Source of the DNA: Eubacteriales bacterium
GTDB taxonomy: Bacteria; Bacillota; Clostridia; Oscillospirales; CAG-272
Direction of reading: 5' to 3'
Assembly: GCA_045542035.1 (NCBI GenBank)
Contig: JAZQKG010000013.1
Span: 12,102-76,101 of the forward strand
DNA length: 64,000 nucleotides
Position 1 is the first letter of the stretch. Each line of letters begins with the position of its first letter. The notes under the pieces were generated by a model, which was given only the letters and a program-made list of their open reading frames with translations, was not told the DNA's origin and searched no databases. Below, in pieces: positions 8,130-41,747 of this stretch. A program made the position numbers and the translations under genes.

Positions 8130-8162
8130 TTTATCGATAATAAAATGTTTTCAGGTGAAAAA

Positions 8163-14868: not shown

Positions 14869-14920
14869 CAATTCTTTGCAATTATTGTGATGTGATTTAA
14901 TTCAGAAAGGAAAAAATAAA

Positions 14921-20726: not shown

Positions 20727-20780
20727 TGCGGATTTCATCTGTTTCATTTGATTCAAAGTCATAAATAGGAGATGTTTTAT

Positions 20781-22825: not shown

Positions 22826-22834
22826 GAGGTAAAT

Positions 22835-23548: not shown

Positions 23549-23558
23549 GAGGTAAAAA

Positions 23559-24485: not shown

Positions 24486-24506
24486 TATTATATAGGAGCA
24501 AAGACG

Positions 24507-25274: not shown

Positions 25275-25306
25275 AAATCAAGAATAGCACACTCGAAAGG
25301 GAAATT

Positions 25307-25840: not shown

Positions 25841-26979
25841 AAAAAATACTTTTAATCAACCCCTGGGGAATCAATAATGATGAGTTTTACACGAGTGGAT
25901 TGACAAAAGCATTGAGTGCTGTTGTTAATCTGGATTTAGCCACGAACTATTATTATGCCGGTTATACGCCAAATTGTGATTTGCACAAGATTTTTTTCAG
26001 AATAACAGAAAAGTACACGAAGAATAGCGTGTTTCGGAAAATAGTTCGAGGGGTGGAATATTTATTTGCATATCTTCGTTTGCTGAGAATTATTAAAAAT
26101 AACAAATACGATTATGTACATATTCAATGGTTATTGATGTATAAGTTGGATGCTATTTTCTTAAAACAAATTAAACGAAAAAACGGGAAAATCATTTTAA
26201 CTGCACACAATGCTTTACCTCATGTGAATGCTGACAAATATGTCAAAGAACTAAGAAAAATTTATGCAACTGTTGATAAAATATTAGTGCATGGTGAAAC
26301 CATTGAGCAAGAAATTCTTACTGTGTTTCCAGAACTAAAAGGAAAAATAATTATCCAGCCTCATGGTGCGGTATTGCACAGAAAATCTATGAGACCGGAC
26401 TATTCTGTTGATAAATCGTTGTTAGATCGGGTGGCGAATAAGGAATTATATATTATGTTTGGAAATCAGTTTTACAACAAGGGAACTGATAGACTACTTA
26501 ATATATGGAGAGAAAATTATCTTGATGATTCCCGAAAGCTTTTGGTTATTGCGGGGAGAAAAACCAGAGACTATCCCGAACTTGAACAAGCAAAAAAGTT
26601 TCTCAACCATAGTGATAACGTAATGTTTTTAGATGGTTACATTGATGATGAATTATTAGAATACTTGATACTTCATTCAGAAGCAATACTTTTACCTTAT
26701 CGTCACGCAAGTATGAGTGGTGTCGTTTTTACCGCAGCGGAATATCAAACCACAATATTAACAACAAGATGTGGAGCTATTCCAGAATATCTTGAAAACG
26801 GAAAGGATAGTATTATCGTTGATAATTCCGAAGAAGGGTTTGCTATAGGATTGAAAGAAATGATGTTGATGACAAGAGATGAAAGGAAAACTCTTGGTAG
26901 GCGTTTATATGAAAATATAAATACCAAGTATTCATGGGAGAGCATCGCTAAGTTGTTATTGGAGAGGGTTTACAAATAG
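25837..26979 (+). CDS. glycosyltransferase family 4 (GT-B)
   Basis: 380 aa. C-terminal GT-B donor-binding region (LPYRHASMSGVVFTAAEYQTTILTTRCGAIPEYLENGKDS). 4-nt overlap with the upstream gene. Confidence 0.8.
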   Translation: MKKILLINPWGINNDEFYTSGLTKALSAVVNLDLATNYYYAGYTPNCDLHKIFFRITEKYTKNSVFRKIVRGVEYLFAYLRLLRIIKNNKYDYVHIQWLLMYKLDAIFLKQIKRKNGKIILTAHNALPHVNADKYVKELRKIYATVDKILVHGETIEQEILTVFPELKGKIIIQPHGAVLHRKSMRPDYSVDKSLLDRVANKELYIMFGNQFYNKGTDRLLNIWRENYLDDSRKLLVIAGRKTRDYPELEQAKKFLNHSDNVMFLDGYIDDELLEYLILHSEAILLPYRHASMSGVVFTAAEYQTTILTTRCGAIPEYLENGKDSIIVDNSEEGFAIGLKEMMLMTRDERKTLGRRLYENINTKYSWESIAKLLLERVYK

Positions 26980-26999
26980 AGAAAAGGAGCCGTAATTAG

Positions 27000-28289
27000 A
27001 TGTCAATAAATAAAAAAATGATTATCTGTAACATAGGATTTATTGCAATGTTTATTGCAGCATATTCTGTCAACAGAAACTTGATGATTGTTGCGGCAAT
27101 TATCCCTACAGCATTTATACTATTGAATAACAATTTGTTTTCAGGACTATCCGAGTTGTTTTTTTTGCTACCATTTTCGCAAACAATGACTATATCAATG
27201 GGGACAACGAGTTTATTTATGCTCCCCAAGTTAGCATTGATAGTTGTGTATTTTGTTAAAAACAAATTTCGTATAAACATCAGAATGTTCATGGCTTTGA
27301 TTACGTTACTTTTGTACTCACTATTAATAAACGGGCTTAAAACAAACTTTCCGATTATTCGTATTATGAACTTAATATTGTGGTTTTTGATAGCATTCAT
27401 TTTGTGCCAAACTATTAAGAAGGCAGATGATATGAAGATAACCTCTAGTTCGTTTGTTGTGGGTGTAATAGTATCTGGCATTATTGGAATATTGAAAGAT
27501 TATTTGCCTAATTTAGCAAGTGATTTGATCAGTGCTCAATATTTGAACGAATCAACAGGAAATATTGTTCAGCGATTTTCTGGCTTATGGAACGATCCTA
27601 ATGGGTATACGATATTTTTGATCTGCTCATTATTTGCGCTGTTTTGGTTATTAAACAATAAGTGCATAAAAGTTATTGGATTTGCAATTTTGGCAGCAAT
27701 GATAAGTGCATTGGGTATAATGACCCTATCAAAATCATGTGCGCTATTATTAATTATGTTTTGGGCATACTTCTTGATTTCAAACCAAGGTATGTCAATG
27801 AGACAAAAAATCGGTTCAGGACTTGTTTTTGTAGTATTATGTGTTCTTGGAGCTTCTTTGTATGAAAGCGAAGTATCGGAATTGATTTACAGATTTACAA
27901 GTTCTAATCAAAATGGCAGTGGTATTAACTTTGGCGCTCTAACAACTCACAGAAACACTATATGGGATGATTATGTTGATGCGATATGGCAAGGGGATTT
28001 TATTTTTGGACATGGTATTGATGCTCCTCTCGTGGGAGAATACGCTTGCCACAACACCTATTTGCAGTTGATATATGAGTGGGGTATCTTTGGTACGCTG
28101 ATTTATATTGCTATATGGGTGTGCATGATGAAAAAAGACGGAAATGTAAAACAAAATTATGTTCCACTTCTCTTTTTGCTTGTAACGATATTCTTTATCA
28201 GTTGTGTATATATTGAGAGCGTATATATTTTGTTGCCATTTATTTTATGTATAGGGGCTGTGCGTAAGGATGATGAAAAAGTTACTTAA
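27000..28289 (+). CDS. wzy: O-antigen/capsule repeat-unit polymerase (Wzy-like)
   Basis: 429 aa with about 10 or more hydrophobic segments. Carries the Wzy_C-type motif [15 protein letters not shown]. Confidence 0.7.
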
Positions 28290-28749
28290 TGTGCTTTATA
28301 AGATGATTAATATACTTCCAGATAGAAATTGGAATATGAAACTGAAACATGCAGTGTTTAAGAGGTGTGTATGCTCTTGTGGATCTACAACTTTGGCACG
28401 GCGTGGTGCAATATTTTCTGCAGACTTGATTATTGGAAATAACTCCGGTATTGGAGAAAAATGTGTTGTTGCAGCGAAAACGATTATTGGAGACAATGTA
28501 ATAATGGCAAGAGAAGTAATCATAAATCCTGATAATCACATTACAAGTAGAACCGATATTCCTATGAACAGGCAGGGCATAACTCATAATACCGTTAGAA
28601 TCGAGGACGATGTTTGGATTGGCACCAGAGCAATAATATTGGCACCGAATAAAAACATAACAATATCCAGAGGATCTATAATTGCAGCTGGAGCTGTTGT
28701 TACAAAAGATGTCCCTCCGTATTGTATAGTGGGGGGGGGTACCTGCTAA
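28270..28749 (+). CDS. hexapeptide-repeat (LbH) sugar O-acetyltransferase, C-terminus truncated by frameshift in a G9 tract
   Basis: LbH repeats ([53 protein letters not shown]). Ends [11 protein letters not shown]. The -1 frame after the G tract reads [24 protein letters not shown] to 28807. Confidence 0.85.
28731..28739 (+). repeat. G9 homopolymer (candidate slipped-strand contingency tract or homopolymer sequencing error)
   Basis: Nine consecutive G read directly at 28731..28739. It is the only long G/C run I noticed in the AT-rich island. Confidence 0.9.
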
Positions 28750-28784
28750 GGTGATTAAACAAAGAATTAATGGGGTTTTAGAAA

Positions 28785-29948
28785 ATGAGGATATTGTTGA
28801 TCGTTGATGTTATTGATAATGGCGGAGTAGGTGTCGTTCTAAGAAATCTTTTGCATAACATTGAAACAAGCAAATATGAGATAGATGTATTGTCTTTTGA
28901 AGAAAAAAAAGAATATGAATCTCAGTTACCTAATACGATTCAAATAAGGAATGTATATAAGAGAAACCCTATGAAACACAGGGATAAGTACATTCGCTAC
29001 ATTTACAGCCTTTTACGCGAAATTTGTCCTAAGTGGGCTATTAGACGCTTTATTGTTAAAAAGAAATACGACTTAGCCATTGACTTCAAGGGAAATAATT
29101 TGAACGTACTGACAGCTAATAATTGCCCGAAGATATTTTGGAGCCATAAAGATTTTTCACCGATAACAAACCCGATTGAGAAAAAGGTCATTGAAGAATA
29201 TTCAAAGACAAGAAGTGGCGCAGAAAAAGAAAAACTGTTTTTGAGAAACTTGCGTATGATAGATGGGGTTGTTTGCATTTCAGAGGCTTGCAAAAAGGCT
29301 TTTATTGAGAGATGGGATTATCCAGAAGATAAAATCCATGTACTTTTGAATGTTCTTGATGTGAATGAAATAAAAAGCAAATCAATGGAAAAAGTAGAGT
29401 ATTCCAAAACTAGCAAGTTTACATTTTGCTGTATGTCCAGAATATCATCAGGAAAAGGTATTGAACGTCTTCTTAATTGCGTTAGCGTTCTTAATGGTAT
29501 GGGTTACTCCTTCGTGCTGAATATTGTTGGAGGTGGGGATACATTGGATGAAATGATATCTCTTGCAAAGTCTATGAATCTTGATAACGTGGCTTTCTTT
29601 GGCAATAAAGACAATCCCTATCCATATGTTGTTCAGTCTGACGTGTTTGTGTATCCATCTGAGACAGAAGCGTATGGCATGGCGGCATGTGAAGCCTTGA
29701 TTTTGGGCAAACCGATTATTACGACTAAAACAGCATCGGTTCCGGAGATTTTCGGAAACAGTGAATATGGACTCGTAGTGGAAAATTGTGAACAAGAAAT
29801 ACTTGCAGGTATGAAACGCTTTTTAGATGATCCAGAATTGGTAGATTTCTATCATACGCAAGCGGAAAAACGCTTAGAATATTTTGATGTTCAATCCCGG
29901 GCCAAAGCGGTAGAGGAGTATATAGATGAAATTGCAAAGAATACTTGA
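28785..29948 (+). CDS. glycosyltransferase family 4 (GT-B)
   Basis: 387 aa. GT-B E-x7-E region YPSETEAYGMAACEALILGKPIITT. Confidence 0.8.
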   Translation: MRILLIVDVIDNGGVGVVLRNLLHNIETSKYEIDVLSFEEKKEYESQLPNTIQIRNVYKRNPMKHRDKYIRYIYSLLREICPKWAIRRFIVKKKYDLAIDFKGNNLNVLTANNCPKIFWSHKDFSPITNPIEKKVIEEYSKTRSGAEKEKLFLRNLRMIDGVVCISEACKKAFIERWDYPEDKIHVLLNVLDVNEIKSKSMEKVEYSKTSKFTFCCMSRISSGKGIERLLNCVSVLNGMGYSFVLNIVGGGDTLDEMISLAKSMNLDNVAFFGNKDNPYPYVVQSDVFVYPSETEAYGMAACEALILGKPIITTKTASVPEIFGNSEYGLVVENCEQEILAGMKRFLDDPELVDFYHTQAEKRLEYFDVQSRAKAVEEYIDEIAKNT

Positions 29949-30840
29949 GCATTATCGCGAGGAAATGAATTATGAAGTTTTGTGGGATATAATGCTTTTT
30001 GATACAGAAAATTCAAATAATAAAGTTGTTGTAAAAGAACCTGCCAGCAGATTTTGGGGGGCAGATCCGTTTCTTTTTGCTCAGGATGGTCGTAAATATC
30101 TATTCTATGAGCAATATGATAGGAAAAGAAAGAAAGGCGTAATTGCATATCGAGAAATAACTAACAATGGAAGCTACACTTTATCAGAACCATACGTTAT
30201 AATTGAAGAAGATTTCCATATGTCATTCCCTTATATATTCCAAAGGAACGACGATATATATATGATACCCGAGACATCAAGTGTTGGTGAAATTAGGCTT
30301 TATCGAGCTGAAGGCTTTCCGAACCAATGGGTTTACGAAAAAACAATTGTTTCGAATTTCCCGGGAGTAGATACAATCGTACTGCAAAATAATGAGAAGT
30401 TGATTTTACACAGTTCGGTAGGCGATTCTTGCAATGTTGAAAATTATCTACTGGAATGTGACAAAGACTTCTCATGTGTACGAAAATATAAGATTAAAGA
30501 TTATTCCGAACGAGGTAATCGCAACGCCGGCAGAATAGTAAAAAGAAATGGGAAAGAATATAGAATTGGACAAGATTGCAGTGGCAAGGAATATGGTAAA
30601 GGTTTAATAGCATACGAAATTACATCCTCAAGATCAGAGGTGGAGAAGGATGTGTTTTCGTATGATAGATTTCTGGAAACCGATGAATACTGTGGCGTAC
30701 ATACCTATAATGAATGTAATGGAACGAGTGTTATTGACCTGAAATATTTGATGCCCAAGCCAATATACAAAAAAATTGGCTTTATTGTAGTGAAAGCGTG
30801 GGGAGCAATTAAAAGAAAGGTAAGAAGAATTTTCAAATGA
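29926..30840 (+). CDS. conserved-looking soluble protein of unknown function (WGADPF motif, possibly beta-propeller-like)
   Basis: 304 aa. SD GAGGAG lies 7 nt before the ATG. Overlaps the upstream gene by 23 nt. Motifs WGADPFLFAQDG..YLFYEQY and MIPETS. No confident family call. Confidence 0.6.
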   Translation: MKLQRILEHYREEMNYEVLWDIMLFDTENSNNKVVVKEPASRFWGADPFLFAQDGRKYLFYEQYDRKRKKGVIAYREITNNGSYTLSEPYVIIEEDFHMSFPYIFQRNDDIYMIPETSSVGEIRLYRAEGFPNQWVYEKTIVSNFPGVDTIVLQNNEKLILHSSVGDSCNVENYLLECDKDFSCVRKYKIKDYSERGNRNAGRIVKRNGKEYRIGQDCSGKEYGKGLIAYEITSSRSEVEKDVFSYDRFLETDEYCGVHTYNECNGTSVIDLKYLMPKPIYKKIGFIVVKAWGAIKRKVRRIFK

Positions 30841-31883
30841 GCGAATTACAAGTTAGATTTTACGAGAATATAGAAGACTTCTACACAGCTATTTCCGGGA
30901 TTTCGGAGGATGTTACACTTAACACACCTTTCCAATATGAAGATTGGCAAAGACAACTTTTTGCTGAACATAGGGCAATAAGAAGTAGAATTCCTTATAT
31001 AGGAGCAATCTTGTATCGTGGGAATAATCCGATTCTCGGCGGTCATTTCTTTGTTAAAAAGAGTGGTAAAAGAAAAGGAATTTTTTTGCTTGGTAGTGGT
31101 GGAGAAACAGATTATTATGACTTAATTTATTTTTCGCCGGAAGCTTCTGAAGAATATATAGAAATTTTTCTCGACCAAGTAGCGCAAAAAAATAATTGTA
31201 GTGACTTTACTTTCATGCAAATTCCCGATGAATCATTATTATCAAATTGGGCAAAGCAACGTTGTATAGAGCCGTATTATGTAAATGAATGCGCATGGGT
31301 GAGATTACAAGATAGTTTTGAAGAACATTTGGCTTCACTTTCCAAAAGTGTTCGTCAGAATATTAGAACAGCTAATAACCGCCTGACAAAAGATGAACAT
31401 ATCACAACACTTGATATTTATGATGAAACAGAACTGCCATTCGACAAGATTAAAGACATTCTTGATTTATATGAGTCGAGAAGAAAGAAAAAAAATGAAA
31501 CAAGAACCGTGAAAACATGGATTAGAGAACAACTCAGAGAACATAATAAGAGAAAATATCATATTATTTCAGAAGCGATGAAGAATATGGAAGGGAAATT
31601 TCTTGCGGTGTATAACATTGATTCCCAAATAGCTGCATATTGTTTCGGGTTGAAAAATAGAACAGGGTTGAGTGTTTGTATTATGCAGGTAGCAATCAAT
31701 GATGATTATAACAAATATTCTCCGGGTATGCTTCTGCTCGTTGAGGTGTTTAAGAAAATAATGGAACAAAAAGAAGGACAAAATTTCCTTTTTGATTTAA
31801 CAAATGGAAATGAAAAATACAAATACTCATTAGGTGCAGTATCACACTATACAAATTATTACAAGTTTGGCTTGAACAAATAG
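30837..31883 (+). CDS. FemAB-fold / CelD(BcsL)-like GNAT-superfamily acyl- or aminoacyl-transferase
   Basis: 348 aa. Size and C-terminal pattern (FLAVYN, SPGMLLL, GNEKYKYSLGA) resemble the CelD-like acetyltransferase family. Called by resemblance only. Confidence 0.5.
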   Translation: MSELQVRFYENIEDFYTAISGISEDVTLNTPFQYEDWQRQLFAEHRAIRSRIPYIGAILYRGNNPILGGHFFVKKSGKRKGIFLLGSGGETDYYDLIYFSPEASEEYIEIFLDQVAQKNNCSDFTFMQIPDESLLSNWAKQRCIEPYYVNECAWVRLQDSFEEHLASLSKSVRQNIRTANNRLTKDEHITTLDIYDETELPFDKIKDILDLYESRRKKKNETRTVKTWIREQLREHNKRKYHIISEAMKNMEGKFLAVYNIDSQIAAYCFGLKNRTGLSVCIMQVAINDDYNKYSPGMLLLVEVFKKIMEQKEGQNFLFDLTNGNEKYKYSLGAVSHYTNYYKFGLNK

Positions 31884-31905
31884 ATTAGAAACAAGGGGAT
31901 TACAT

Positions 31906-33447
31906 ATGAGAGAAAATAGATCAGCGGGAATCAATATGATAATCGCCACAAGTTTAACTATGGTCGCAAAATTAATAGCGATTGTAAGACAAATGGTTCT
32001 AACATATTACTATGGAGCCGGTGCGGTAAGTGATGCATACTTATTAGCTCAATCCATACCGAACACTTTATTTTTGATAGTGAGCACCGCAATAGGTGTC
32101 AGTTTTATACCAGTGTATTCAAAGGTAGATAAAGAGGAAGGCGAGATGGCAGCGAAAAAATTTGTCAACAATATGATGTCTATTGTTCTGCTGTTAGCAA
32201 GCATAATTGTTGTTGCTGTTTTGCTTCTTTCAAAACAAATTATCTATATTTTTGCTTCGGGATTTGATGCTGAAACAAGTGAAATAGCTTCTCAATTTTT
32301 AAGAATAAGCATATTTGGAATCTTCTTTGTTGGCATGGCGGGTATATTAAGCTCCTACCAAAAAATAAAAAATGATTACTTTTCACCATCAATTATAGGA
32401 ATTGCATTAAGCCTTGTAGAAATTGCTTCTTGTGTAATTGCTGTTCGCACTTCGGACACGCTATTGGCGGTAGGTATATTAATTGCAAATGTTGTTCAAT
32501 GGATAATACTTGCTGTCGCAGCCCTAAAAAAAGGCTACTGCTACAAACCTGTATTGAACCTTCGCTCTAAATATATAAAGATGGCAGTTATGATGTCATT
32601 CCCAATTATGTTAGGGTTGGGTGCAGACGAAATAAATGTAATTGTTGATAGGACAATTGCCTCAACATTCGATCAAGGAAGCATATCATCATTAACATAT
32701 GCCAACACAATTGTTTCCATAGTACATACGCTTATTTCTGTTTCCATAAATTCAGTTGTATTTGTAGAAGTATCTAGATATGCCTCTGAAGGAAATAAAG
32801 ACGCTGTTGTAAAAGAAGTGAGTTCAGGAATCAACAAATTATTGGTGATTCTTGTTCCTGCGACATTTGGAATGATTGCTTATGCGGAGCCAATCGTTAG
32901 ATGTTTATATGAAAGAGGTAATTTTTCTCCGGAGCATACCGCACTCACAGCAGGAATTATGATATGTTATTCATTATACATTGTTCCTAATGGAATTAGG
33001 ATTGTTGTTCAATCGTACTATTACGCATACGGGAAAACAAAATTCTGTATGTACGCGGGTTTAATTGCTGTAGCAATAAATATAATATTTAATATAATTC
33101 TATCAAAGAGCATTGGTATTAATGGGTTAGCGCTCGCAACTACATTGGGAATATATGCATCTTCCATAGTCTTGTTCGTTGGTTTTGTTATAAAAAACAA
33201 TCCCTTCTCTTGTGGTAATATGATAAAGCTGTTAATTAAAACGATTGTAGGTAGCGTTATTATGATAATTTCTTCAGTAACGCTTTATCGGATATTAATG
33301 ACGGTTATTCCAGAAATTTTTGCTTTGATTTTGGGCGTTTTAGTTGCAGTATCTGTTTATGCTATTTATGCAATCAGTGTAAAAATAATATCAGTGTCCG
33401 AAATTACTGATTACTTGAAAAGACACAGAAAAAGAGGATTAAGATGA
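31906..33447 (+). CDS. MOP-superfamily flippase, MurJ/MviN-like (functional Wzx of the locus)
   Basis: 513 aa with about 14 TM segments. MurJ-type N-terminus VRQMVLTYYYGAGAVSDAYLLAQSIPN. Confidence 0.75.
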   Translation: MRENRSAGINMIIATSLTMVAKLIAIVRQMVLTYYYGAGAVSDAYLLAQSIPNTLFLIVSTAIGVSFIPVYSKVDKEEGEMAAKKFVNNMMSIVLLLASIIVVAVLLLSKQIIYIFASGFDAETSEIASQFLRISIFGIFFVGMAGILSSYQKIKNDYFSPSIIGIALSLVEIASCVIAVRTSDTLLAVGILIANVVQWIILAVAALKKGYCYKPVLNLRSKYIKMAVMMSFPIMLGLGADEINVIVDRTIASTFDQGSISSLTYANTIVSIVHTLISVSINSVVFVEVSRYASEGNKDAVVKEVSSGINKLLVILVPATFGMIAYAEPIVRCLYERGNFSPEHTALTAGIMICYSLYIVPNGIRIVVQSYYYAYGKTKFCMYAGLIAVAINIIFNIILSKSIGINGLALATTLGIYASSIVLFVGFVIKNNPFSCGNMIKLLIKTIVGSVIMIISSVTLYRILMTVIPEIFALILGVLVAVSVYAIYAISVKIISVSEITDYLKRHRKRGLR

Positions 33448-34088
33448 GTGTTTTTGCGAAATTAATGTATAAGGTTAAAAGATATACAAAATCCAGAAAA
33501 GACACCTTGCTATTTTACAAACTACGTAAATTGTCCGATAACAATTATTCTGTGAACGAAGAATATCAATTTGTAAGAATCAATGATTTTAAAGGACTTG
33601 AAATGTTTTCTAAAGAACAAGAGGATGGTTTGAGTTGTTTAGTTAATAATGATTGTCAAAATCGTTTTAATAATGGCTCTACATTGATTGTTGCAATGCA
33701 AGGGAAAGAATGGGTGTCATATGGATGGTTGACAAAACAGAGTAATTTTTGGATTGCTGAAATTGACTATGTTATTGACATTGCAAATTCAAAAGTTCGA
33801 TTGCTCTACGACTTTCAGACAAGAGAAAAGTATAGGGGCTTAGGGATATATCCGCTATTAATTAGGTATATAGTTCAAATGCAGCCAGAATTGGAATGCT
33901 TAATCTATTGTTACGAAACCAATATTTCTAGTAAGCGTGGAATAGAGAAGGCAGGCGGAGAATTAGAATGCAAATTACAGCATAAAAGGAAAAATGTTAC
34001 GGACTATTTTTCTTTGTATCGCATTCGAGTATTAGGAAGTAAATACCGTTATTTAGGTTTGAAATACGCAAAGCAAGAAGGAAGATAA
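33444..34088 (+). CDS. GNAT-type N-acetyltransferase
   Basis: 214 aa. Motif A QTREKYRGLGIYPLLIRYIV. Start overlaps the upstream stop. Confidence 0.6.
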   Translation: MSVFAKLMYKVKRYTKSRKDTLLFYKLRKLSDNNYSVNEEYQFVRINDFKGLEMFSKEQEDGLSCLVNNDCQNRFNNGSTLIVAMQGKEWVSYGWLTKQSNFWIAEIDYVIDIANSKVRLLYDFQTREKYRGLGIYPLLIRYIVQMQPELECLIYCYETNISSKRGIEKAGGELECKLQHKRKNVTDYFSLYRIRVLGSKYRYLGLKYAKQEGR

Positions 34089-35278
34089 TGATGAAAATAG
34101 CCTTAGTAATGACATCGTTAAATACAGGTGGTATTGCAACCTCTGTTGTAAATTTATTGAATGAAATATCTAAGGATGACAACTGCTCGGTAGATTTAAT
34201 CCTGTTTCATAAACAACCTAAAGACATCGAGATTTTGCCTGATAATATCGAAGTGTTATCTCCTGGGAAATGGGCTGAATTAATTGCAATTTCCAATTCC
34301 GAGGCAAGAAAGATGGGATTGAGATATTTAGTTTTTCGCTATATTCTTGGCGGAATATGCAAGTTTTTTGGTCATGGATTAGCTTACAAATTGGTCTTAG
34401 CTTTTTCTAGGAAATATCATAATTATGATGTTGCCATTTCGTGTACTCAATCAGCTCCATTACATAATTTGTATGGTGGGTGCAACGAATTTGTATTACA
34501 CAACATTGGTTCAAAAAGAAAGATTGCGTATATCCATTGCGATTATATTACATATGGAATTAACGATAAATATAGCCATAATATTTATCAGCGTTTTGAT
34601 AAGATTGCCGTCGTGTCTGATAGTGTTGGTAGGGTATTCCTTTCCGAGGAGCCGGGCTTCAAAGAAAAAACATTCACGGTGAGAAACTGTCATAATATGG
34701 AAAGAATCCTAGAATTGTCCAAACAAAACACTGTCGAGTTTTCAGATGATGAACTTAACATTATAACGGTGGCACGAATGGGCAAGGAAAAAGGACATAT
34801 AAGGGCTCTGGCTGCTATGAAAGCCCTAAAAGATAAAGACATTAAATTCAAGTGGCATCTTGTTGGTGGAGATAAAGATCAGTCTCCATTGAATTTTATG
34901 GAAAAAATCAATGAATATGGATTAGATGACTATGTTTTTTTTCACGGAATTCAGCACAATCCATATCGATTTATGGTCAATGCGGATTTTTTGCTTGTCC
35001 CTTCCTTTCATGAAGCTGCACCCATGGTTTTTGATGAAGCGAGATTTCTTCAACTACCTATTTTGACAACAAAAACCGTTTCTGCAGTTGAAATGGTTGA
35101 AGCATTAAATATAGGTCTTGTATGCGAAAATGATGATAAGGCTTTAGCTAATGCAATCTATTATTTAGCGACTCATCGAGAGGTATTATCTCGGTATAAA
35201 GAAAATTGCGCTCATCACCCAATGGATAATAAATTAGCATTAGAACAATTTATGACTATTATTGGAGAAACAAAATGA
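34088..35278 (+). CDS. glycosyltransferase family 4 (GT-B)
   Basis: 396 aa. Motifs VARMGKEKG and VPSFHEAAPMVFDEARFLQLPILTT. Confidence 0.8.
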   Translation: MMKIALVMTSLNTGGIATSVVNLLNEISKDDNCSVDLILFHKQPKDIEILPDNIEVLSPGKWAELIAISNSEARKMGLRYLVFRYILGGICKFFGHGLAYKLVLAFSRKYHNYDVAISCTQSAPLHNLYGGCNEFVLHNIGSKRKIAYIHCDYITYGINDKYSHNIYQRFDKIAVVSDSVGRVFLSEEPGFKEKTFTVRNCHNMERILELSKQNTVEFSDDELNIITVARMGKEKGHIRALAAMKALKDKDIKFKWHLVGGDKDQSPLNFMEKINEYGLDDYVFFHGIQHNPYRFMVNADFLLVPSFHEAAPMVFDEARFLQLPILTTKTVSAVEMVEALNIGLVCENDDKALANAIYYLATHREVLSRYKENCAHHPMDNKLALEQFMTIIGETK

Positions 35279-36273
35279 TTATAACAAAAACACCGTTCCG
35301 GATGTCGTTCTTTGGCGGCGGAACGGATATGGAGAGTTTTTTTAGAGACAATAGCGGCGCTGTATTGTCAACTACTTTTGATAAGTATTGTTACGTTAAC
35401 GTTCGTCATTTGCCGAGATTTTTTGATTATTCAACTGAATTATCATATTCAAGAACAGAACGAGTTACTGATATATCTGCAATTCAGCATCCGGCAATCC
35501 GTAACGCAATGCAGATGCTAGATATGCATGAGATTCGCCTTACATATGAGGCAGACTTGCCTGCTCGATCTGGACTTGGGACAAGCAGCTCTTTTGCCGT
35601 TGGTATGCTCAATGCTTTTTATGCCTTGAAAGGTAAATATGCAGACAAGAAAAAACTTGCGAACGAGGCAATTTATTTAGAGCGTGTTTTGTGCAATGAA
35701 GCAGGTGGTTGGCAAGATCAAATTGCTGCAGCATATGGTGGATTGAACCGTATCAATTTCAATGCTGATGGGTATGAAGTATTACCTGTTATCATATCTC
35801 CTGAAAGAAAAAAACAGTTAAATGATAATCTGTTGATGTTTTTTACAGGATTTACACGTTTTTCATCGGAAGTTCAGAAAACCAATAATGTTTCCGCTAG
35901 TGAGAAAAGGAATCAATTAAAAGAGATGTACCTATTGGTTGATGAGGCTGAAAAAGTGCTTACCGACAGTAAATCAGAACTTGACGATTTTGGCAGATTG
36001 CTTGACCACACGTGGAACTTAAAGAAACAAACAGGCTCATCCATTTCAACTAGCGCAATAGATGAATTCTATGAAAAAGGAATGAAAGCCGGAGCTTTGG
36101 GTGGAAAACTTCTTGGAGCTGGTGGCGGTGGTTTTCTTGTGTTTTATGTTCAACCAGAATATAAAGATTCAGTAATGAGAGCAATGCAAGAATTGATGTA
36201 TATCCCATTTTCTTTTGAAAATGGTGGCACAAGAGTTATTCATTATAGTCCGGAAACTTATATCCCACGTTGA
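35275..36273 (+). CDS. hddA: D-glycero-alpha-D-manno-heptose 7-phosphate kinase (GHMP kinase)
   Basis: 332 aa. GHMP motifs PARSGLGTSSSF and GGKLLGAGGGGF. Adjacent to the other heptose genes. Confidence 0.75.
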   Translation: MIITKTPFRMSFFGGGTDMESFFRDNSGAVLSTTFDKYCYVNVRHLPRFFDYSTELSYSRTERVTDISAIQHPAIRNAMQMLDMHEIRLTYEADLPARSGLGTSSSFAVGMLNAFYALKGKYADKKKLANEAIYLERVLCNEAGGWQDQIAAAYGGLNRINFNADGYEVLPVIISPERKKQLNDNLLMFFTGFTRFSSEVQKTNNVSASEKRNQLKEMYLLVDEAEKVLTDSKSELDDFGRLLDHTWNLKKQTGSSISTSAIDEFYEKGMKAGALGGKLLGAGGGGFLVFYVQPEYKDSVMRAMQELMYIPFSFENGGTRVIHYSPETYIPR

Positions 36274-36293
36274 AAAGTGGTGTTTGTTAGGAG

Positions 36294-37622
36294 GTGGCAG
36301 TATTGAAAGCTGTGATTATGGCAGGAGGTAAAGGAACCCGTATATCTTCCGTTGCAAGCGACATACCCAAGCCAATGATAAAAATTGATGGCATGCCTGT
36401 TCTTGAGCATGAAATCGGTTGTTTGAAAGATCAGGGATTTACAGATATTATCTTAACAGTCAGCCATTTCGGAAACATTATTATTGATTATTTTGGAGAT
36501 GGAAGCAGAGTTTCTCCCGTGACGGGAAAACCATTTGGCGTGTCAATAGAATACTTCTTTGAAGAAAAGCCACTTGGCAATGCAGGAGCGTTGTTTGCGT
36601 TGAAGGAGAAGCTAAAGGATGATTTTTTGCTGCTAAATGCTGATGCGATATTTGATGTTGATTTCAATCGCATAGTTGCGTTTCATAAAGAACATGGCGG
36701 TTTAGCAACTTTGTTCACACATCCCAATAATCACCCATATGATAGTGGATTGATTGTTGCTGATGATAAAGGCGCTGTGATGCATTGGCTTACAAAAGAG
36801 GATGATAGAACAGGATATTATCGCAACAGAGTTAATGCAGGACTTCACGTTATTTCGCCAAGATTACTGGATATTGACATCCAAACGGAGAAAGTTGATT
36901 TGGATCGACAGTTACTTAAACCTCTCGCTGGTACGGGCAAAATGTATGTGTATGACAGTCCGGAATATGTAAAAGATATGGGAACTCCGGAGCGCTATGA
37001 AATGGTATGCCGAGATTATCGTAGCGGAAAAGTCAAAGCTCGCAATTTAAAAAACAAGCAAAAAGCAATATTTCTTGATCGGGATGGTACGATAAATAAG
37101 CATATTGGCTTTTTGAGAAATATAAATGATTTTGAGTTGTTGCCCGGTGTAACCGATGCAATCGGAAGGATAAATCAATCCGAGTATTTGGCTATCGTTA
37201 TAACGAATCAACCCGTTATAGCTCGTGGTGAGATTAGCGTTCAGGAATTAGATCTGATTCACAACAAAATGGAAACACTTCTTGGGAATCATGGTGTTTA
37301 TTTGGATGCTATCTATTACTGTCCTCATCACCCACATAAAGGTTATGAGGGTGAGAGACCTGAATACAAAATAGATTGTGAATGCAGAAAACCAAAGCCC
37401 GGGATGTTGTTAAGAGCTGCAGAAGCTTTTAATATTGATTTAGGACAGTCATGGATGATTGGTGACGGAGAAAATGACATCTTAGCAGGAATTTCAGCAG
37501 GCTGTAAAACGGTTTTGATTTGCGATGAGATGGATACCGATTTTGGTCAAGATATATCTACGGATAGTTTGTACAATTCAATTACTGCGATTTTTGAAAA
37601 TGTAAAGAAGAAAGAGGCATGA
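36294..37622 (+). CDS. bifunctional heptose 1-phosphate nucleotidyltransferase / D,D-heptose 1,7-bisphosphate phosphatase (HddC-GmhB fusion)
   Basis: N-terminal NTP-transferase domain (VIMAGGKGTRISSVASDIPKPM). C-terminal HAD phosphatase with FLDRDGTIN, ITNQP, CPHHP..CECRKPKPGM and GDGENDILAG. The start is either GTG 36294 or the better-spaced TTG 36303. Confidence 0.8.
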   Translation: MAVLKAVIMAGGKGTRISSVASDIPKPMIKIDGMPVLEHEIGCLKDQGFTDIILTVSHFGNIIIDYFGDGSRVSPVTGKPFGVSIEYFFEEKPLGNAGALFALKEKLKDDFLLLNADAIFDVDFNRIVAFHKEHGGLATLFTHPNNHPYDSGLIVADDKGAVMHWLTKEDDRTGYYRNRVNAGLHVISPRLLDIDIQTEKVDLDRQLLKPLAGTGKMYVYDSPEYVKDMGTPERYEMVCRDYRSGKVKARNLKNKQKAIFLDRDGTINKHIGFLRNINDFELLPGVTDAIGRINQSEYLAIVITNQPVIARGEISVQELDLIHNKMETLLGNHGVYLDAIYYCPHHPHKGYEGERPEYKIDCECRKPKPGMLLRAAEAFNIDLGQSWMIGDGENDILAGISAGCKTVLICDEMDTDFGQDISTDSLYNSITAIFENVKKKEA

Positions 37623-37623
37623 A

Positions 37624-38274
37624 ATGTCAAATTTAGAACAACGACTAATGAAACATATAGATTTATTAATAGAAAGATATCCTCGACTGGATATTTGTAA
37701 AAATGAGATTGTCAACGCTTATTTAGTTATGGAACACTGTTATAAATCTGGAGGCAAATTACTGATTGCCGGAAATGGCGGTTCTGCCGCAGATGCAGAG
37801 CACATGGTAGGCGAACTGATGAAGGGCTTTGTGTTTCAGAGAAAACTGGACAGCGAGTACCAAAATAAGCTTAAAGCGGTTAATAAAGAGCTTGGTGAAA
37901 CTCTATCTGAAAATCTTCAAGGTGCTATGCCTGCAATTGCTTTAACTGGTCATTTTGCTTTATCAACAGCATATATGAATGACTGTGAACCTACCCTTGG
38001 TTTTGCTCAACAAGTTAATGGTTTTGGAAACGAAAATGATGTCTTCATTGGAATTTCTACGTCTGGAAACAGCTTGAATGTTGTGTATGCGGCTGTTGTA
38101 GCAAAGGCAAAAGGAATGAAGGTTATTGGATTAACCGGAAGTAAGGATAGTAAATTATCTGAATTTGCTGATGTTTGCGTTAAGGTTCCCAATACAGAAA
38201 CCTATATAGTACAAGAATATCATTTACCGATATATCATTGCTTATGCTTGATGATTGAAGATAAGTTTTTTTGA
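37624..38274 (+). CDS. gmhA: phosphoheptose (sedoheptulose-7-phosphate) isomerase
   Basis: 216 aa SIS domain. Motifs GNGGSAADAEH and GISTSGNS. Confidence 0.85.
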   Translation: MSNLEQRLMKHIDLLIERYPRLDICKNEIVNAYLVMEHCYKSGGKLLIAGNGGSAADAEHMVGELMKGFVFQRKLDSEYQNKLKAVNKELGETLSENLQGAMPAIALTGHFALSTAYMNDCEPTLGFAQQVNGFGNENDVFIGISTSGNSLNVVYAAVVAKAKGMKVIGLTGSKDSKLSEFADVCVKVPNTETYIVQEYHLPIYHCLCLMIEDKFF

Positions 38275-38294
38275 AATACAGAGGATGTTAAGAT

Positions 38295-39533
38295 ATGAAA
38301 ATTGCAGTCGCAGGAACCGGCTATGTCGGTTTATCAATATCGGTTCTTTTGGCACAACATAATAAAGTAACAGCCGTTGACATTATTCCTGAAAAGGTGG
38401 AAATGATCAACAACAAAAAGTCTCCTATACAGGACGATTACATAGAGAAGTATCTTGCTGAAAAGGAGCTTGATCTGACAGCAACTCTTGATGCGGAAGC
38501 GGCATATAAGGATGCAGATTTTGTGGTAATCGCCGCACCAACTAATTATGATAGCCAAAAGAATTTCTTTGACACATCCGCTGTAGAAGCGGTTATTCAG
38601 CTTGTAATTAAATATAATCCTGATGCAATAATGGTCATCAAGTCCACTATCCCTGTTGGGTTTACGGCGATGGTTCGGGAGAAGTATCATTGTGATAATA
38701 TCATTTTCAGTCCGGAGTTTCTTCGTGAATCTAAGGCGCTTTATGATAATCTCTATCCGAGTAGAATTATTGTCGGAACAGATGTTGAAAATACTCGTCT
38801 TGTAAAGGCAGCAAACACATTTGCAAAACTTCTTCAAGAAGGTGCTATCAAAGAAAACATTGATACTCTCATCATGGGACACACAGAAGCGGAGGCAGTC
38901 AAGCTGTTTGCCAATACATACCTTGCGCTCCGTGTATCTTACTTTAACGAGCTTGATACCTATGCGGAGATGAAAGGACTTGACACACAGCAGATCATCA
39001 ACGGCGTGTGCCTTGATCCGAGAATCGGTACGCATTACAATAATCCTTCTTTTGGATATGGTGGATATTGCCTGCCTAAAGACACTAAACAACTTCTTGC
39101 CAATTATGAAGATGTTCCGCAGAATATGATGACTGCAATCGTGGAATCCAATAGAACCCGTAAGGATTTTATTGCTGATCGTGTCCTTCGCATGGCTGGG
39201 TACTACGGTTATGAAGAAAATAACGAATATATCAAATCGAAAGAAATCCCTGCAGTGATAGGTGTTTATCGTCTTACCATGAAAGCAGGTTCAGACAATT
39301 TCCGTCAGTCGTCCATTCAAGGAGTTATGAAACGCATCAAAGCAAAGGGCGCAAAGGTTGTCATCTATGAACCAACTCTTACAGATGGCGAAACTTTTTT
39401 TGGTAGTGAGATCGTGAACGATCTTGTGAAGTTCAAAGAAATGTGTAATGCTATTATTGCCAATAGGTATGATGCATGTCTTGATGATGTATCGGACAAG
39501 GTATATACGAGAGACATATTCAGACGAGATTAA
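38295..39533 (+). CDS. ugd: UDP-glucose 6-dehydrogenase
   Basis: 412 aa. Rossmann [12 protein letters not shown] and the catalytic Cys context [10 protein letters not shown]. Confidence 0.9.
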
Positions 39534-39717
39534 CATAGCAAAAGCGGAATTGTTACTTATTAGAGTAGCTAAAAGATTTGCTAAGTTTATCAACAAAACA
39601 CGATGTGATTCATATTTTGATACATAAAGAAAGATTGCGACACAGCTTCTGTTCCGAGAGAGACCTTGCAAATTTGCGGAGCACTATGACGTATTTTATA
39701 AGAAATAATAATTTATC

Positions 39718-40593
39718 ATGAAAATATTTGCAGCGACTTTTAATACACTTACACAAACAGAAAAATTCCTCGGAATGGGCGAAAGCGTATGGCAGGGAAT
39801 AAGCGCCTTTATATCTACCATTCTGGTTGCGGTGACTGTCGGTTACATCACAACTCACCTACTCTCAAAGCAGGAGGCGCTGAATAACGAGGAGGGGAAG
39901 CTCCTTAAGGCTCGGACTGATGCTTATCTTGGGATTCTTGATTCGATGGCGCGAATGGAAGAGCGCAAGGTTATTATGGATCCTGATTTTGAAATCAGAA
40001 ATTCTATTCAGGAAAACGGGATACTGATGCTGCGCGACCGCCCTGCAGTCGAGTACCCTCCGTATATGGAGAGCTATGATAAGTTCTTTGACCTTTTTCG
40101 AAATATGGTTTCTTTCTATGAGGAAAAGCTTTATCTGACCAGTCCAAGAACCTACAAGGAATTTATGTATGCTTACTGTTATTTTACACGGATACATACT
40201 TATTACTTTTATCTTCAGACTTTGACTCTTCCAAACGGAGACGTGATTGATGAAGATAAGGCGAAGGAAATTATTGCGGATTTTTATCCGAAGCTTGGAA
40301 TGATTATCGATTTTGATTTGGTCGTTATGCAGGCGAATTTTGAAAAGGCGCTTGTTTCCGAGCTGTACCGTCCTAAATTCTGTAAAAAGCCTCCGTTCAA
40401 AAATGATGCCAAGATAACGGAATTCTTTCTTTTGAGACTTGCGAGTACCTGCCTCGGTATCAACGAATATGGGATACTGAATCTTTTGAAAGAAATTACA
40501 GCGGAAAAAATGGGTTTTGATGAGAGCGATTTGGACAGAGTGTTTGTGCCGAGCGACCTTATAGTACAGCTGCCGCATGATTTTGAGGTGTAA
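39718..40593 (+). CDS. membrane-anchored alpha-helical protein of unknown function (paralog A)
   Basis: 291 aa. One TM helix (ISAFISTILVAVTVGYITTHLL) after about 25 residues, then a helical soluble domain. No SD before ATG 39718. No recognisable catalytic motif. Confidence 0.6.
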   Translation: MKIFAATFNTLTQTEKFLGMGESVWQGISAFISTILVAVTVGYITTHLLSKQEALNNEEGKLLKARTDAYLGILDSMARMEERKVIMDPDFEIRNSIQENGILMLRDRPAVEYPPYMESYDKFFDLFRNMVSFYEEKLYLTSPRTYKEFMYAYCYFTRIHTYYFYLQTLTLPNGDVIDEDKAKEIIADFYPKLGMIIDFDLVVMQANFEKALVSELYRPKFCKKPPFKNDAKITEFFLLRLASTCLGINEYGILNLLKEITAEKMGFDESDLDRVFVPSDLIVQLPHDFEV

Positions 40594-40596
40594 GGT

Positions 40597-41469
40597 ATGG
40601 ATGTATATGTTTTATTGAAGTTTCATACGCTGCAGCTTACATCAGTGCTCCCGAATTTTATTGTGGGAAGTATAGTTGAAATCGTGTGCACAATAGCGGC
40701 ATCGATTCTGGTCGCGGTTTTTACTACAGTGGTTCTTGACAGAAGAAAAAATATAAATGCCGTAATGGCTCAGGTGATGAATCTGAGACTCAAACAATAC
40801 GGCGAAATCAGGATGTTCATAAAAAATGCGGAGAACACAAAATCCTATGCTCAGGATGCTGAAAATATCTTTAATCTTCTTGAGTGCTGTTCATTGAAAA
40901 TAGAGAATGATGTTTATTTTGAGTCAAGCGACGCTGTGTCCTCATTAGAGGCTATTGACACGCAGCTTACTGAGCTTGAAAATCTTACGGCAAACGGTCT
41001 TTATATTCTTGATGACGATACCTTAGGTCAACTTCTTACGGTGAAAATTTACGTCAAAAATCTTAGAATGTACGCTGACCTTTTAGATGGGTATATAAGA
41101 AGTATATCAAAGGAAAAAGTCATCTCGGAAAAAGAGCTTAAAGAAACGTTGGATATATTTTATACCTATCTTTCAGTGTTTACTTATAACGATTATCAAA
41201 AATTGATTTCCGAGCTTTTAAAATTGGTGGAAGCTAAGTCTTCGAAACCGCGATTTGAGAGGAAAGAAAAGAATTATAGGAAAATCCGTACCAGACAGAG
41301 AATTCAGGATGAAGTTTTTGAAAATACATGGCTAAGTAATAATTTTCCTAATCTTGTGCATGCGTTAATTTTGATATATATTGATCATGGGTCAATACCG
41401 GACGATGAATGCGAAGAATTCGCTAAAGGAATGTTTAAGTACACTCTTAAAATTCTTAACAGAGATTAA
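40597..41469 (+). CDS. membrane-anchored alpha-helical protein of unknown function (paralog B)
   Basis: 290 aa. Begins 3 nt after paralog A. N-terminal hydrophobic stretch (FIVGSIVEIVCTIAASILVAVFTTVVL) followed by DRRKN. Shares short collinear motifs with paralog A. Confidence 0.65.
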   Translation: MDVYVLLKFHTLQLTSVLPNFIVGSIVEIVCTIAASILVAVFTTVVLDRRKNINAVMAQVMNLRLKQYGEIRMFIKNAENTKSYAQDAENIFNLLECCSLKIENDVYFESSDAVSSLEAIDTQLTELENLTANGLYILDDDTLGQLLTVKIYVKNLRMYADLLDGYIRSISKEKVISEKELKETLDIFYTYLSVFTYNDYQKLISELLKLVEAKSSKPRFERKEKNYRKIRTRQRIQDEVFENTWLSNNFPNLVHALILIYIDHGSIPDDECEEFAKGMFKYTLKILNRD

Positions 41470-41476
41470 CATTATC

Positions 41477-41512
41477 AAAAACCCCGGGCGTTAGTTCGCT
41501 CGGGATTTTTTT
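41477..41512. terminator. bidirectional rho-independent terminator
   Basis: AAAAA-CCCGGGCG-ttagtt-CGCTCGGG-ATTTTTTT, with an 8-bp stem containing one G-U pair. Serves the convergent genes on both sides. Confidence 0.75.
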
Positions 41513-41676
41513 CTGCTCTCTTCCGCTGCGCACAGCTCGCCCGCGAGAACGAGAAGCGATTCTATTCTCGATGAGATCTCTTCGGCAGAAAGCCATGCAT
41601 TTTCTATACAGCGGTAGCCTTCTTCTGCCGCGCTTATTTTTGTGTTAAGTATTTGAAGCTCTGAGTTTATATACAT
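41491..41676 (-). CDS. small hypothetical protein (61 aa)
   Basis: ORF 41491..41685 starts on GTG. ATG 41676 (MYINSELQ) follows SD AAAGAAAGG. The 3' end runs into the terminator hairpin. No family recognised. Confidence 0.4.
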   Translation of the reverse strand: MYINSELQILNTKISAAEEGYRCIENAWLSAEEISSRIESLLVLAGELCAAEESRKKSRAN

Positions 41677-41747
41677 AATATTCACCTTTCTTTTTAATTA
41701 CATATATAATATATCATATGAAATGTACTATAAAATCTACTTATAAA

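Follow-up and report, generated by a model that had tools for sequence, protein, structure and literature searches.

A tandem pair of membrane-anchored paralogs at the edge of a polysaccharide island, and its possible role as a phage defence or exclusion cassette

The gene pair and the flank upstream of it

We describe here two adjacent genes, A and B, that lie downstream of ugd at the edge of a polysaccharide island, within a 64,000-nucleotide stretch of DNA (the window). The genes and their immediate signals are as follows.

39718..40593, + strand: gene A, an open reading frame of 291 aa and the divergent paralog
40597..41469, + strand: gene B, an open reading frame of 290 aa and the paralog retaining the superfamily motifs
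40585..40590, + strand: Shine-Dalgarno sequence for B (GAGGTG), read from the sequence upstream of the B ATG and within the final codons of A
41483..41514, + strand: strong intrinsic-terminator-like hairpin (41483..41504; an 8-pair stem with 7 G-C pairs) and T-run (ATTTTTTTCT), closing the A-B transcription unit

A and B are genuine genes, and purifying selection acts on both (dN/dS of 0.05-0.13 for A and 0.11-0.18 for B). A has 14 homolog clusters (among 5.8e9 proteins) and B has 34. An earlier analysis that used only the DNA letters (the sequence-only reading) had placed the two reading frames 3 nt apart, and these coordinates are confirmed. Across 14 loci of relatives the A-B spacing varies from -11 to +3 nt, which fits translational coupling, and the two genes are probably coupled in this way. 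As also reported in that reading, A has no Shine-Dalgarno sequence upstream of its ATG at 39718, and a terminator scan detects no terminator-like site between ugd and A, a strong one lying 3' of B. The pair is co-oriented with ugd and its co-transcription with the island is plausible. An Rfam search over 39000-42400 gave no match.

The short region between ugd and A contains a gene remnant and a sequence junction.

39649..39708, + strand: relic of the 3' end of a NAD-dependent sugar epimerase gene, consisting of the last ~20 codons including the stop; its translation, LFRERPCKFAEHYDVFYKK, corresponds to PLREGLRKFAEWYHEFYQKK at the C-terminus of the intact enzyme
39662..39670, no strand: left edge of the conserved flank and recombination junction of the variable polysaccharide locus, where blastn homology to L001, L009, L021 and L002 begins

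The intact epimerase is 358 aa long and its gene stops 8-9 nt before A in three related loci (L001, L009 and L021); taking these together with L003, A begins 8-9 nt after the epimerase gene or overlaps it. No usable start codon remains in the relic, which has a stop codon upstream. The sequence-only reading had correctly located a palindrome and both hexamers of a weak promoter ahead of A but gave them a regulatory role; they fall inside the relic, the promoter scores below the scan threshold, and both are remains of the truncated epimerase gene and not regulatory features. From the junction rightward, homology is unbroken through the pair and Fur to the RNase R region at 84-93% identity, and blastn upstream of it finds no match to the same four loci. 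Within the window's clade (five loci, 84-93% nucleotide identity) the pair stays put at one fixed site and has no known defence gene as a neighbour, while the polysaccharide genes upstream differ wholly from locus to locus. Its rate of evolution is close to that of the adjacent housekeeping genes, which would be unusual for defence genes with fast turnover. Around 38000-42600, a scan for att-like repeats, direct or inverted, flanking the pair turned up short chance matches only.

Homology, membrane topology and predicted fold

The following segments of the two proteins are referred to below.

39796..39864, + strand: transmembrane helix of A (residues 27-49), the best Kyte-Doolittle window and sole hydrophobic segment, spanned by AF2 helix 22-81
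40681..40737, + strand: transmembrane helix of B (residues 29-47; Kyte-Doolittle 2.63), the sole hydrophobic segment, with DRRKN directly after it
40999..41019, + strand: LYILDDD motif of B (residues 135-141), invariant in the B family; A has LYLTSPR there
41245..41301, + strand: basic segment KPRFERKEKNYRKIRTRQR of B (residues 217-235), near-invariant in the B family, with low AF2 pLDDT (52-64)

Sequence comparison indicates that A and B are homologous, as had been proposed from short shared motifs: BLASTP aligns them over 215 aa with 20% identity (E = 0.005), and alignment of the two family profiles gives a probability of 93% over 247 columns (E = 2.6e-7). Both belong to a wider superfamily not described before, which comprises roughly 150 clusters and in which single-gene relatives of ~280 aa match the A family with a probability of 99.6% (E = 1e-24) and the B family with 99.5% (E = 1e-22). 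Since A and B are each closer to these single-gene relatives than to one another, the old tandem duplication suggested earlier is just one possibility, although the homology on which it was built holds. Three of the four collinear motif pairs picked out by eye (LYLTSP/LYILDD, DEDKAKEII../SEKELKETL.. and YRPKF/SKPRF) are recovered by the BLASTP alignment, whereas the fourth, in the transmembrane segment, is offset there by four residues. The A family has invariant motifs of its own, DRxAVEYxP (residues 107-115) and IDFD..MQ (residues 197-205), and has lost the conserved acidic motif of the superfamily. Across the superfamily alignment just two cytoplasmic positions, D139 and Y152 of B, are invariant or nearly so.

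Each protein is predicted to have a short external N-terminus, a single membrane helix and a helical cytoplasmic domain of ~240 aa. The B helix is followed by five Lys/Arg within 20 residues, compared with one in its entire N-terminal flank, and the corresponding C-terminal and N-terminal values are 2.6 and 0.27 for the A family and 5.4 and 0.9 for the B family; the bias favours an N-out/C-in orientation in all three families (A, B and the single-gene relatives). This bias agrees with the cytoplasmic domain that DRRKN had previously suggested, and hydrophobicity and the AF2 models both agree with one N-terminal anchor followed by a helical soluble domain. The models (pTM 0.73 for both; pLDDT 77 for A and 81 for B) are predicted to be largely helical with two short strands, in an order of secondary-structure elements that is nearly identical in A and B.

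The absence of a recognisable family noted in the sequence-only reading persisted through sensitive profile searches and Foldseek searches with the AF2 models. Pfam, NCBIfam and PADLOC give no significant family for either protein, PADLOC-DB v2.0.0 yielding only noise for A (MTase_II, E = 0.007, 14 bits) and no match for B; PADLOC v2 includes candidate PDC families, and the pair is absent from it. Among 34 superfamily members, Pfam returns scattered noise (SieB, DUF4760, DUF4145 and NucS_C), and PHROGs v4 no consistent assignment, with at most two of the 34 matching any one PHROG (E about 2e-3). Foldseek against the PDB gives best E-values of 0.17 for B and 0.65 for A with a cut-off of E <= 1e-3, and for B against BFVD a best E of 0.024 with a TM-score of 0.25; the structures returned are generic helical bundles (ClyA/AhlC, OspC/Vsp and GPCRs) with TM-scores of 0.1-0.26. 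PDB sequence profiles show nothing significant for A or B, and neither has a recognisable nuclease, NADase, pore-forming fold or other effector domain. The Pfam family DUF4760 (PF15956) matches residues 33-108 of B, comprising the transmembrane and juxtamembrane helices, at 15.7 bits, below its 25-bit gathering threshold; it does not match A or any of the other 33 superfamily members, it is about half the length of A and B, and a literature search on it found nothing relevant. No copies were found in phages (INPHARED) or plasmids (PLSDB) by tblastn with B and the single-gene relative P0118, or in IMG/VR with the A- and B-family alignments, and an exact look-up of the window's own B and Fur proteins gave no identical record, and hence no strain lacking the pair.

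Genomic contexts of the pair

A precedes B wherever a locus offers enough sequence, and the genes co-diverge closely, with a correlation of r = 0.99 between their pairwise identities over 91 locus pairs. The question of whether they are conserved as a pair, raised by the sequence-only reading together with that of the loci they travel with, is thereby answered, and the companions are mostly defence or mobile-element genes and also polysaccharide-locus edges. In eight of ten independent contexts the pair has genes of known or suspected defence, toxin-antitoxin or mobile-element type no more than a few kb away. By the yardstick of guilt-by-association screens (defence genes at a distance of about ten genes or less), the tally is eight of ten for the pair and three of three for the single-gene relatives, the latter in unrelated taxa; these are raw counts from a small sample (~13 independent contexts).

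In five contexts the gene immediately adjacent to the pair is a named Abi or restriction-modification gene. AbiH adjoins it in L005 and L022 and Abi_C in L024, AbiEi and AbiEii come after it in L003, and an Eco57I-type methylase and an XhoI endonuclease are directly upstream in L010. Elsewhere the locus carries ThsA, Abi_2, DpnI and an AAA_15/21 ATPase (L008), a dGTPase-like HD protein and a SocA_Panacea protein (L011), or MNT/HEPN genes (L025). Two of the pair contexts, L005 and L022, are phage-like elements devoid of polysaccharide genes, with a module of M78 peptidase and HTH repressor, PDDEXK, Enc34-type ssDNA-binding protein and PolA, and the ComM-DprA hotspot hosts the pair in L012 and L022. 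Among the single-gene relatives, one (L027) directly follows PycTM with a ThsB-like TIR protein nearby, another is beside an AbiLi-like ATPase, DUF4365 and a serine recombinase, and a third is beside PIN_12, SocA_Panacea and Bro-N. Sugar-nucleotide genes adjoin the pair in the window's clade, L003, L024 and L010, and also the single-gene relative in L027. The pair behaves as a rare, horizontally mobile cassette that moves as one unit, mainly among Clostridia; its landing sites are defence islands, the accessory parts of phage-like elements and the 3' border of polysaccharide loci. It occurs in gut and anaerobic-digester Clostridia, in which few defence systems were tested.

Plausible functions of the cassette

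Because the cassette moves as a unit and is usually found beside anti-phage genes, it is more likely to be a phage-defence module than part of the neighbouring sugar-coat machinery. We favour the reading that A and B are a hitherto uncharacterised two-gene membrane cassette for defence or exclusion, with a probability of roughly one half; a two-gene membrane system unrelated to the island, such as phage exclusion, was among the candidates offered from the sequence alone, and it is the one to which the comparative contexts point. Its action is most likely of the abortive-infection or exclusion type, by a mechanism that we infer. A and B would hetero-oligomerise through the long membrane-adjacent helix, with B retaining the ancestral functional motifs (LYxLDDD, KIYxxN and the basic KPxFERKEKNYRKIxTR segment) and A having taken on a specialised role such as that of a sensor or regulator, and upon infection the complex would perturb the membrane or block some step of the phage cycle close to the membrane. 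In this genome transcription probably reaches A and B by read-through from ugd, since the epimerase gene that first stood ahead of them was truncated when the locus was replaced. A more ambitious proposal, which we advance tentatively and at somewhat less than even odds, is that A and B found a new anti-phage superfamily of membrane-anchored proteins with a fold of its own (no PDB or BFVD match); the widespread single-gene form would work as a homo-oligomer and the clostridial pair as an A/B hetero-oligomer, converting a cytoplasmic infection signal into a block at the membrane. If the pair is a defence system, the anti-phage repertoire gains a family that lacks both a recognisable domain and a solved fold, and the single-gene and paralogous-pair forms offer a natural comparison for the evolution of heteromeric membrane sensors.

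Several known systems invite comparison. Lambda RexAB, P22/lambda SieB and Pycsar PycTM are likewise small membrane-anchored cassettes that lack enzymatic domains and reside in prophages or defence islands; the pair itself lies beside AbiH in an accessory region of phage-like elements, and one single-gene relative directly follows a PycTM gene. However, there is no sequence or fold similarity to any of them, the single Pfam SieB match by a superfamily member being at noise level (E = 0.009). RexB and PycTM cross the membrane several times and RexA is a soluble protein, whereas A and B are both single-pass paralogs with large predicted cytoplasmic domains. Zorya (with its ZorAB core) and Kiwa (KwaAB) resemble the pair in having co-encoded membrane proteins at the core of the system. 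Both are thought to sense envelope events, their partners are multi-pass and are not paralogs of each other, and Zorya requires extra cytoplasmic effectors; A and B match no PADLOC model of either.

A possible, if doubtful, alternative is that the pair is an accessory membrane module of mobile DNA with a non-defence role (in the envelope or stress, element maintenance, or exclusion of other mobile elements), and that defence genes are nearby only through shared hotspots. Its occupancy of ComM-DprA and of polysaccharide-locus edges, the lack of an enzymatic or known effector domain, and its stable inheritance under purifying selection in the window's clade are all consistent with this, but a named Abi or restriction-modification gene as the direct neighbour in five contexts, and the same neighbour pattern around single-gene relatives in unrelated taxa, speak against it.

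The sequence-only reading had also put forward a polysaccharide-assembly pair, and we have considered a non-canonical Wzx/Wzy-dependent accessory, such as a substitute chain-length or export regulator, transcribed at the end of the locus. The arrangement relative to ugd and to the epimerase gene (L001, L009, L021 and L003) agrees with it, polysaccharide genes are near in about five independent contexts, and no Wzz/CpsCD component is found by Pfam in the island, as that reading had stated, though two of its ORFs match no Pfam family. Nevertheless, a dedicated polysaccharide role is unlikely. The pair is present with no polysaccharide genes around it in L005, L008, L011, L012 and L022, so that an obligate link to Wzx/Wzy loci fails, and it persists unaltered as the polysaccharide genes are exchanged. 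Where it is embedded in such loci, the same stretch carries true defence genes too (AbiE in L003, Abi_C in L024, PycTM and TIR in L027), and L010 already has its own CpsB, CpsC and CpsD. Polysaccharide co-polymerases (Wzz, CpsC/Wzd; PF02706) are also helical membrane proteins encoded in polysaccharide loci, but they have two transmembrane helices around an external coiled-coil domain, and the single helix and cytoplasmic domain predicted for A and B are the reverse of that architecture. Neither protein matches PF02706/GNVR in Pfam even at E <= 10, whereas the true Wzz/GNVR protein of L010 scored 3e-13 with the same tool. As a practical caution, A and B should not be annotated as capsule components, nor the apparent signals upstream as anything other than gene remains.

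It is very unlikely that one of the two proteins is a membrane toxin and its paralog the cognate antitoxin or immunity protein, together forming an addiction module that mainly stabilises its DNA segment, for although the genes are tightly coupled, strictly co-inherited and co-diverging, one paralog lacks the conserved acidic motif, and toxin-antitoxin neighbours are frequent (AbiE, SocA_Panacea, DUF4258, MNT/HEPN), single-gene relatives occur with no paralogous partner, and A and B are of equal size and fold, unlike typical toxin-antitoxin pairs. We also considered and dropped a holin/antiholin pair, A and B being too large, with a single helix and a big cytoplasmic domain, and a WbdD-like molecular ruler, there being no kinase or methyltransferase domain.

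Returning to the defence or exclusion cassette, its link to the edges of polysaccharide loci suggests that the same recombination sites may serve both the switching of capsule or O-antigen and the exchange of defence genes, which would couple two layers of phage resistance; a literature search on defence hotspots at capsule loci found nothing specific. Homologous (Campbell-type) recombination anchored on conserved ugd and epimerase genes at the ends of polysaccharide loci may spread the cassette along with other Abi genes, and such events would explain both the truncated epimerase of this window and the flanking duplicates, 95-97% identical, seen in L003 and L024.

Two divergent members of one superfamily

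39718..40593, + strand: gene A, ORF of 291 aa
40597..41469, + strand: gene B, ORF of 290 aa, beginning 3 nt after A

The coordinates, lengths and 3-nt gap of these open reading frames are reproduced from an earlier sequence-only reading, and its proposal that the two are homologous is upheld. A single BLASTP comparison aligns A with B at 20% identity over 215 residues (E = 0.005), and a profile-profile alignment of the A family (15 sequences) with the B family (32 sequences) spans 247 columns with 93% probability (E = 2.6e-7). Three of the four motif pairs noticed by eye are recovered in the BLASTP alignment, but the pair in the transmembrane segments lies four residues out of register. Among 1.84 billion representative proteins, a profile search turned up a wider set of single-TM proteins, about 260-285 aa long, which the A family (99.6%, E = 1e-24) and the B family (99.5%, E = 1e-22) each resemble more than they do one another in profile score. 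A and B are therefore members of a single superfamily. B retains its best-conserved cytoplasmic positions, D139 (in LYILDDD) and Y152, and has a nearly invariant basic stretch, KPRFERKEKNYRKIRTRQR; A has LYLTSPR where B has LYILDDD, and carries invariant motifs of its own, DRxAVEYxP and IDFD..MQ.

A and B contain only one hydrophobic segment each (residues 27-49 in A and 29-47 in B). Lysines and arginines, counted across the family alignments in the 15 residues flanking the segment on each side, are in excess on the C-terminal side in the A family (2.6 versus 0.27), the B family (5.4 versus 0.9) and the relatives of about 280 aa encoded without a paralogous partner (3.9 versus 0.3). By the positive-inside rule this predicts a short extracellular N-terminus and a cytoplasmic domain of about 240 aa, in agreement with the location proposed previously. 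With the family alignments as input, AF2 gives models (pTM 0.73 for both; pLDDT 77 for A and 81 for B) that are mainly helical: the TM helix runs on as a helix of some 60 residues, beyond which lie two short strands and then a helical bundle. Element order and positions are nearly identical in the two proteins.

Neither protein has a significant match in Pfam, NCBIfam or PADLOC, the sole near-match being B to DUF4760 (15.7 bits against a cut-off of 25 bits); 34 superfamily members compared with Pfam and PHROGs gave scattered single matches only, and PDB sequence-profile searches with A and B gave none. Foldseek searches of PDB and BFVD with the AF2 models returned nothing significant (best E-values 0.17, 0.65 and 0.024; TM-scores at most 0.26), and every homologue found is named "hypothetical protein" at source. 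The family is thus absent from every library searched and its fold has no significant match, as the description "no recognisable family" had anticipated. Small membrane cassettes in defence islands, the probable kind of system here, are already known. Foldseek pairs two unnamed phage proteins in BFVD, A0A3G8FEA3 (257 aa) and A0A4D6A514 (163 aa), with the B model at probabilities of 0.96 and 0.94 despite poor E-values and TM-scores, and these could be remote phage-borne relatives.

The pair is rare: 5.8 billion proteins yield 14 clusters of A and 34 of B, and it occurs in five of 185,579 species genomes, all five Clostridia-type Bacillota; single-gene relatives form at least 95 further clusters, one from Halomonas. 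Searches of INPHARED phages, PLSDB plasmids and IMG/VR gave no copy. Wherever a fetched locus extends far enough upstream, an A-type gene lies directly 5' of a B-type gene (spacing -11 to +3 nt). The identities of A and of B are tightly correlated over 91 locus pairs (r = 0.99), and the two genes are inherited and transferred together. Both are under purifying selection, with dN/dS against three related contigs of 0.05-0.13 for A and 0.11-0.18 for B, compared with 0.08-0.10 for the neighbouring RNase R gene.

The conserved flank of a replaceable polysaccharide locus

39649..39708: epimerase relic, the last ~20 codons and stop, within the 184-nt gap after ugd
25235..25840 and 33444..34088: two island ORFs (201 and 214 aa), no Pfam match at E <= 1e-3
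41491..41685, - strand: small ORF convergent on the end of B, 61-64 aa, start probably ATG 41676, own GGTGA SD

DNA homology between the window and three related contigs (L001, L009 and L021) begins abruptly at 39662-39670. Downstream, identity stays at 84-92% across the pair and 6 kb or more of housekeeping genes (93% for the short contig L002), and upstream the window has no DNA match in these three. This pattern places the pair, on the alignment evidence, in the conserved flank beside a replaceable polysaccharide locus. In the same three contigs only 8-9 nt separate A from an intact upstream gene for an NAD-dependent epimerase of 358 aa, and the relic in the window (LFRERPCKFAEHYDVFYKK then stop, versus ...PLREGLRKFAEWYHEFYQKK then stop in the intact protein) marks the crossover point of the replacement. 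Two intergenic features suggested previously dissolve into this relic: the palindrome GCAAATTTGC corresponds to its C-K-F-A codons, and the -35 and -10 hexamers of the proposed promoter lie within it and fall below the promoter-scan threshold.

The scan finds a strong terminator-like site after B and, as had been noted, none between ugd and A, and read-through is therefore the simplest expectation for transcription of the pair. The absence of an SD before A holds throughout the window clade (the window, L001, L002, L009 and L021); in the window GAGGTG lies inside A just 5' of the ATG of B, and in Pelotomaculum GGGAGGAGG lies 5' of A, which starts with TTG.

The island encodes precursor and modification enzymes (HpcH-like enzyme, PLP decarboxylase, class IV aminotransferase, two acetyltransferases, GHMP kinase, NTP-transferase/HAD fusion, SIS isomerase and Ugd) and functions for transfer, polymerisation and export (Bac_transf initiating transferase, GT2 and GT4 transferases, Wzy-like polymerase and MurJ-like flippase). 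Pfam agrees that Wzz and CpsCD are lacking among its ORFs. The locus coincides with a low-GC island (~20700..41500; GC 0.32-0.40 versus ~0.45 in the flanks) that begins just past the lysine-biosynthesis genes dapA, dapB, DAP dehydrogenase and lysA and includes a heptose-type precursor set (the GHMP kinase, NTP-transferase/HAD fusion and SIS isomerase). The small ORF at 41491..41685 is present in all four related contigs and is fast-evolving (54-87% aa identity, dN/dS 0.16-0.36); it has no Pfam match and is absent beside the pair in other lineages.

Genomic contexts and a candidate defence role

Dereplicated genomic contexts of the pair (L numbers are homologous loci)
i. Window clade: pair between polysaccharide locus and Fur, rubrerythrin, GNAT, SecG, RNase R
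ii. Pelotomaculum schinkii L003/L004: ugd, epimerase, pair, AbiEi/AbiEii (PADLOC E = 6e-54, 7e-96), second ugd-epimerase copy
iii. L005/L006: AbiH 73 nt upstream of pair; SEC-C protein downstream, then a phage-like element (HTH repressor, sigma factor, PDDEXK, Enc34-type ssDNA-binding protein, PolA)
iv. L007: no defence gene visible; contig stops just past pair
v. L008: same pair as L007, behind methylase, DpnI, Abi_2, AAA_15/21 ATPase, ThsA (E = 3e-56)
vi. Syntrophomonas L010: pair directly 3' of Eco57I-type methylase and XhoI endonuclease; DUF4258 toxin downstream; CpsB, CpsC, CpsD ~4 kb off on opposite strand
vii. L011/L016: pair, dGTPase-like HD protein, SocA_Panacea protein
viii. Tissierellaceae L012: pair near FRG-domain protein, IS200, ComM, DprA
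ix. L022/L023: ComM, DprA, pair, SEC-C protein, AbiH, phage-like module as in iii
x. L024/L025: epimerase, Abi_C, pair, HD protein, second epimerase copy; MNT/HEPN farther along

Whether the pair travels with polysaccharide loci or with defence islands was assessed from these ten contexts. Recognised or suspected defence, toxin-antitoxin or mobile-element genes lie within a few kb in eight of them, a raw count from a small sample that includes L012 with its FRG-domain protein and IS200 only; in five of the eight such a gene is the immediate neighbour. PADLOC models matched among 105 neighbouring proteins include AbiLi, AriA, AbiH, dGTPase and GajA/PtuA-like. The single-gene relatives have a like pattern in three contexts: with an AbiLi-like ATPase, DUF4365 and a serine recombinase; with PIN_12, SocA_Panacea and Bro-N; and at L027 7572..9990 (also L028 and L029), where a PycTM(-like) gene, the relative and a ThsB-like TIR gene follow one another in the middle of a polysaccharide locus. 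This last, 3' of the flippase and 5' of further glycosyltransferases, is a further islet of defence genes within a sugar locus.

A dedicated role in polysaccharide assembly, one of two candidates raised from the sequence, is disfavoured, as several loci with the pair have no polysaccharide genes at all, the pair outlasts locus replacement in the window clade, and the predicted topology of A and B is unlike that of Wzz. The other candidate, a two-gene membrane system such as phage exclusion, is the direction in which context points: the repeated adjacency to Abi, restriction-modification, Thoeris and toxin-antitoxin genes and to phage-like elements argues for an anti-phage or anti-mobile-element role, and the same placement of single-gene relatives in unrelated taxa adds to this. 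We put its probability at about 0.5, because few contexts were sampled, the pair evolves slowly and is fixed at a single site in the window clade, and sugar-nucleotide genes recur as neighbours. In the proposed mechanism A and B would form a membrane-anchored hetero-oligomer in which B supplies the conserved functional core and A is the specialised partner; since no enzymatic domain is present, the complex would presumably act at the membrane.

Direct duplicates bracket the pair at two loci. In L003 (P. schinkii), ugd-epimerase copies at 6795..9131 and 13200..15536 (97% identical over 2337 nt) enclose the pair and AbiE, the copy upstream of the pair having a changed C-terminus at the junction; in L024, a metagenome contig, epimerase copies at 94..1287 and 8155..9347 (94.6% over 1194 nt) enclose the pair, Abi_C and the HD protein. 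These arrangements suggest that sugar-nucleotide genes served as sites of insertion through single-crossover homologous recombination.

A SEC-C-motif protein of 209-232 aa lies directly 3' of the pair in four independent loci (L005 3412..4041, L014 1970..2665, L015 2829..3110 and L022 5336..6034). Only its C-terminal zinc-binding motif matches PADLOC models (PDC-S12, E2), and it could be an optional third component. ComM and DprA flank the pair in two lineages, on opposite sides (L012 6793..10024 and L022 359..3025), with an IS200 transposase beside them in L012, and this site may be a second recurrent integration hotspot.
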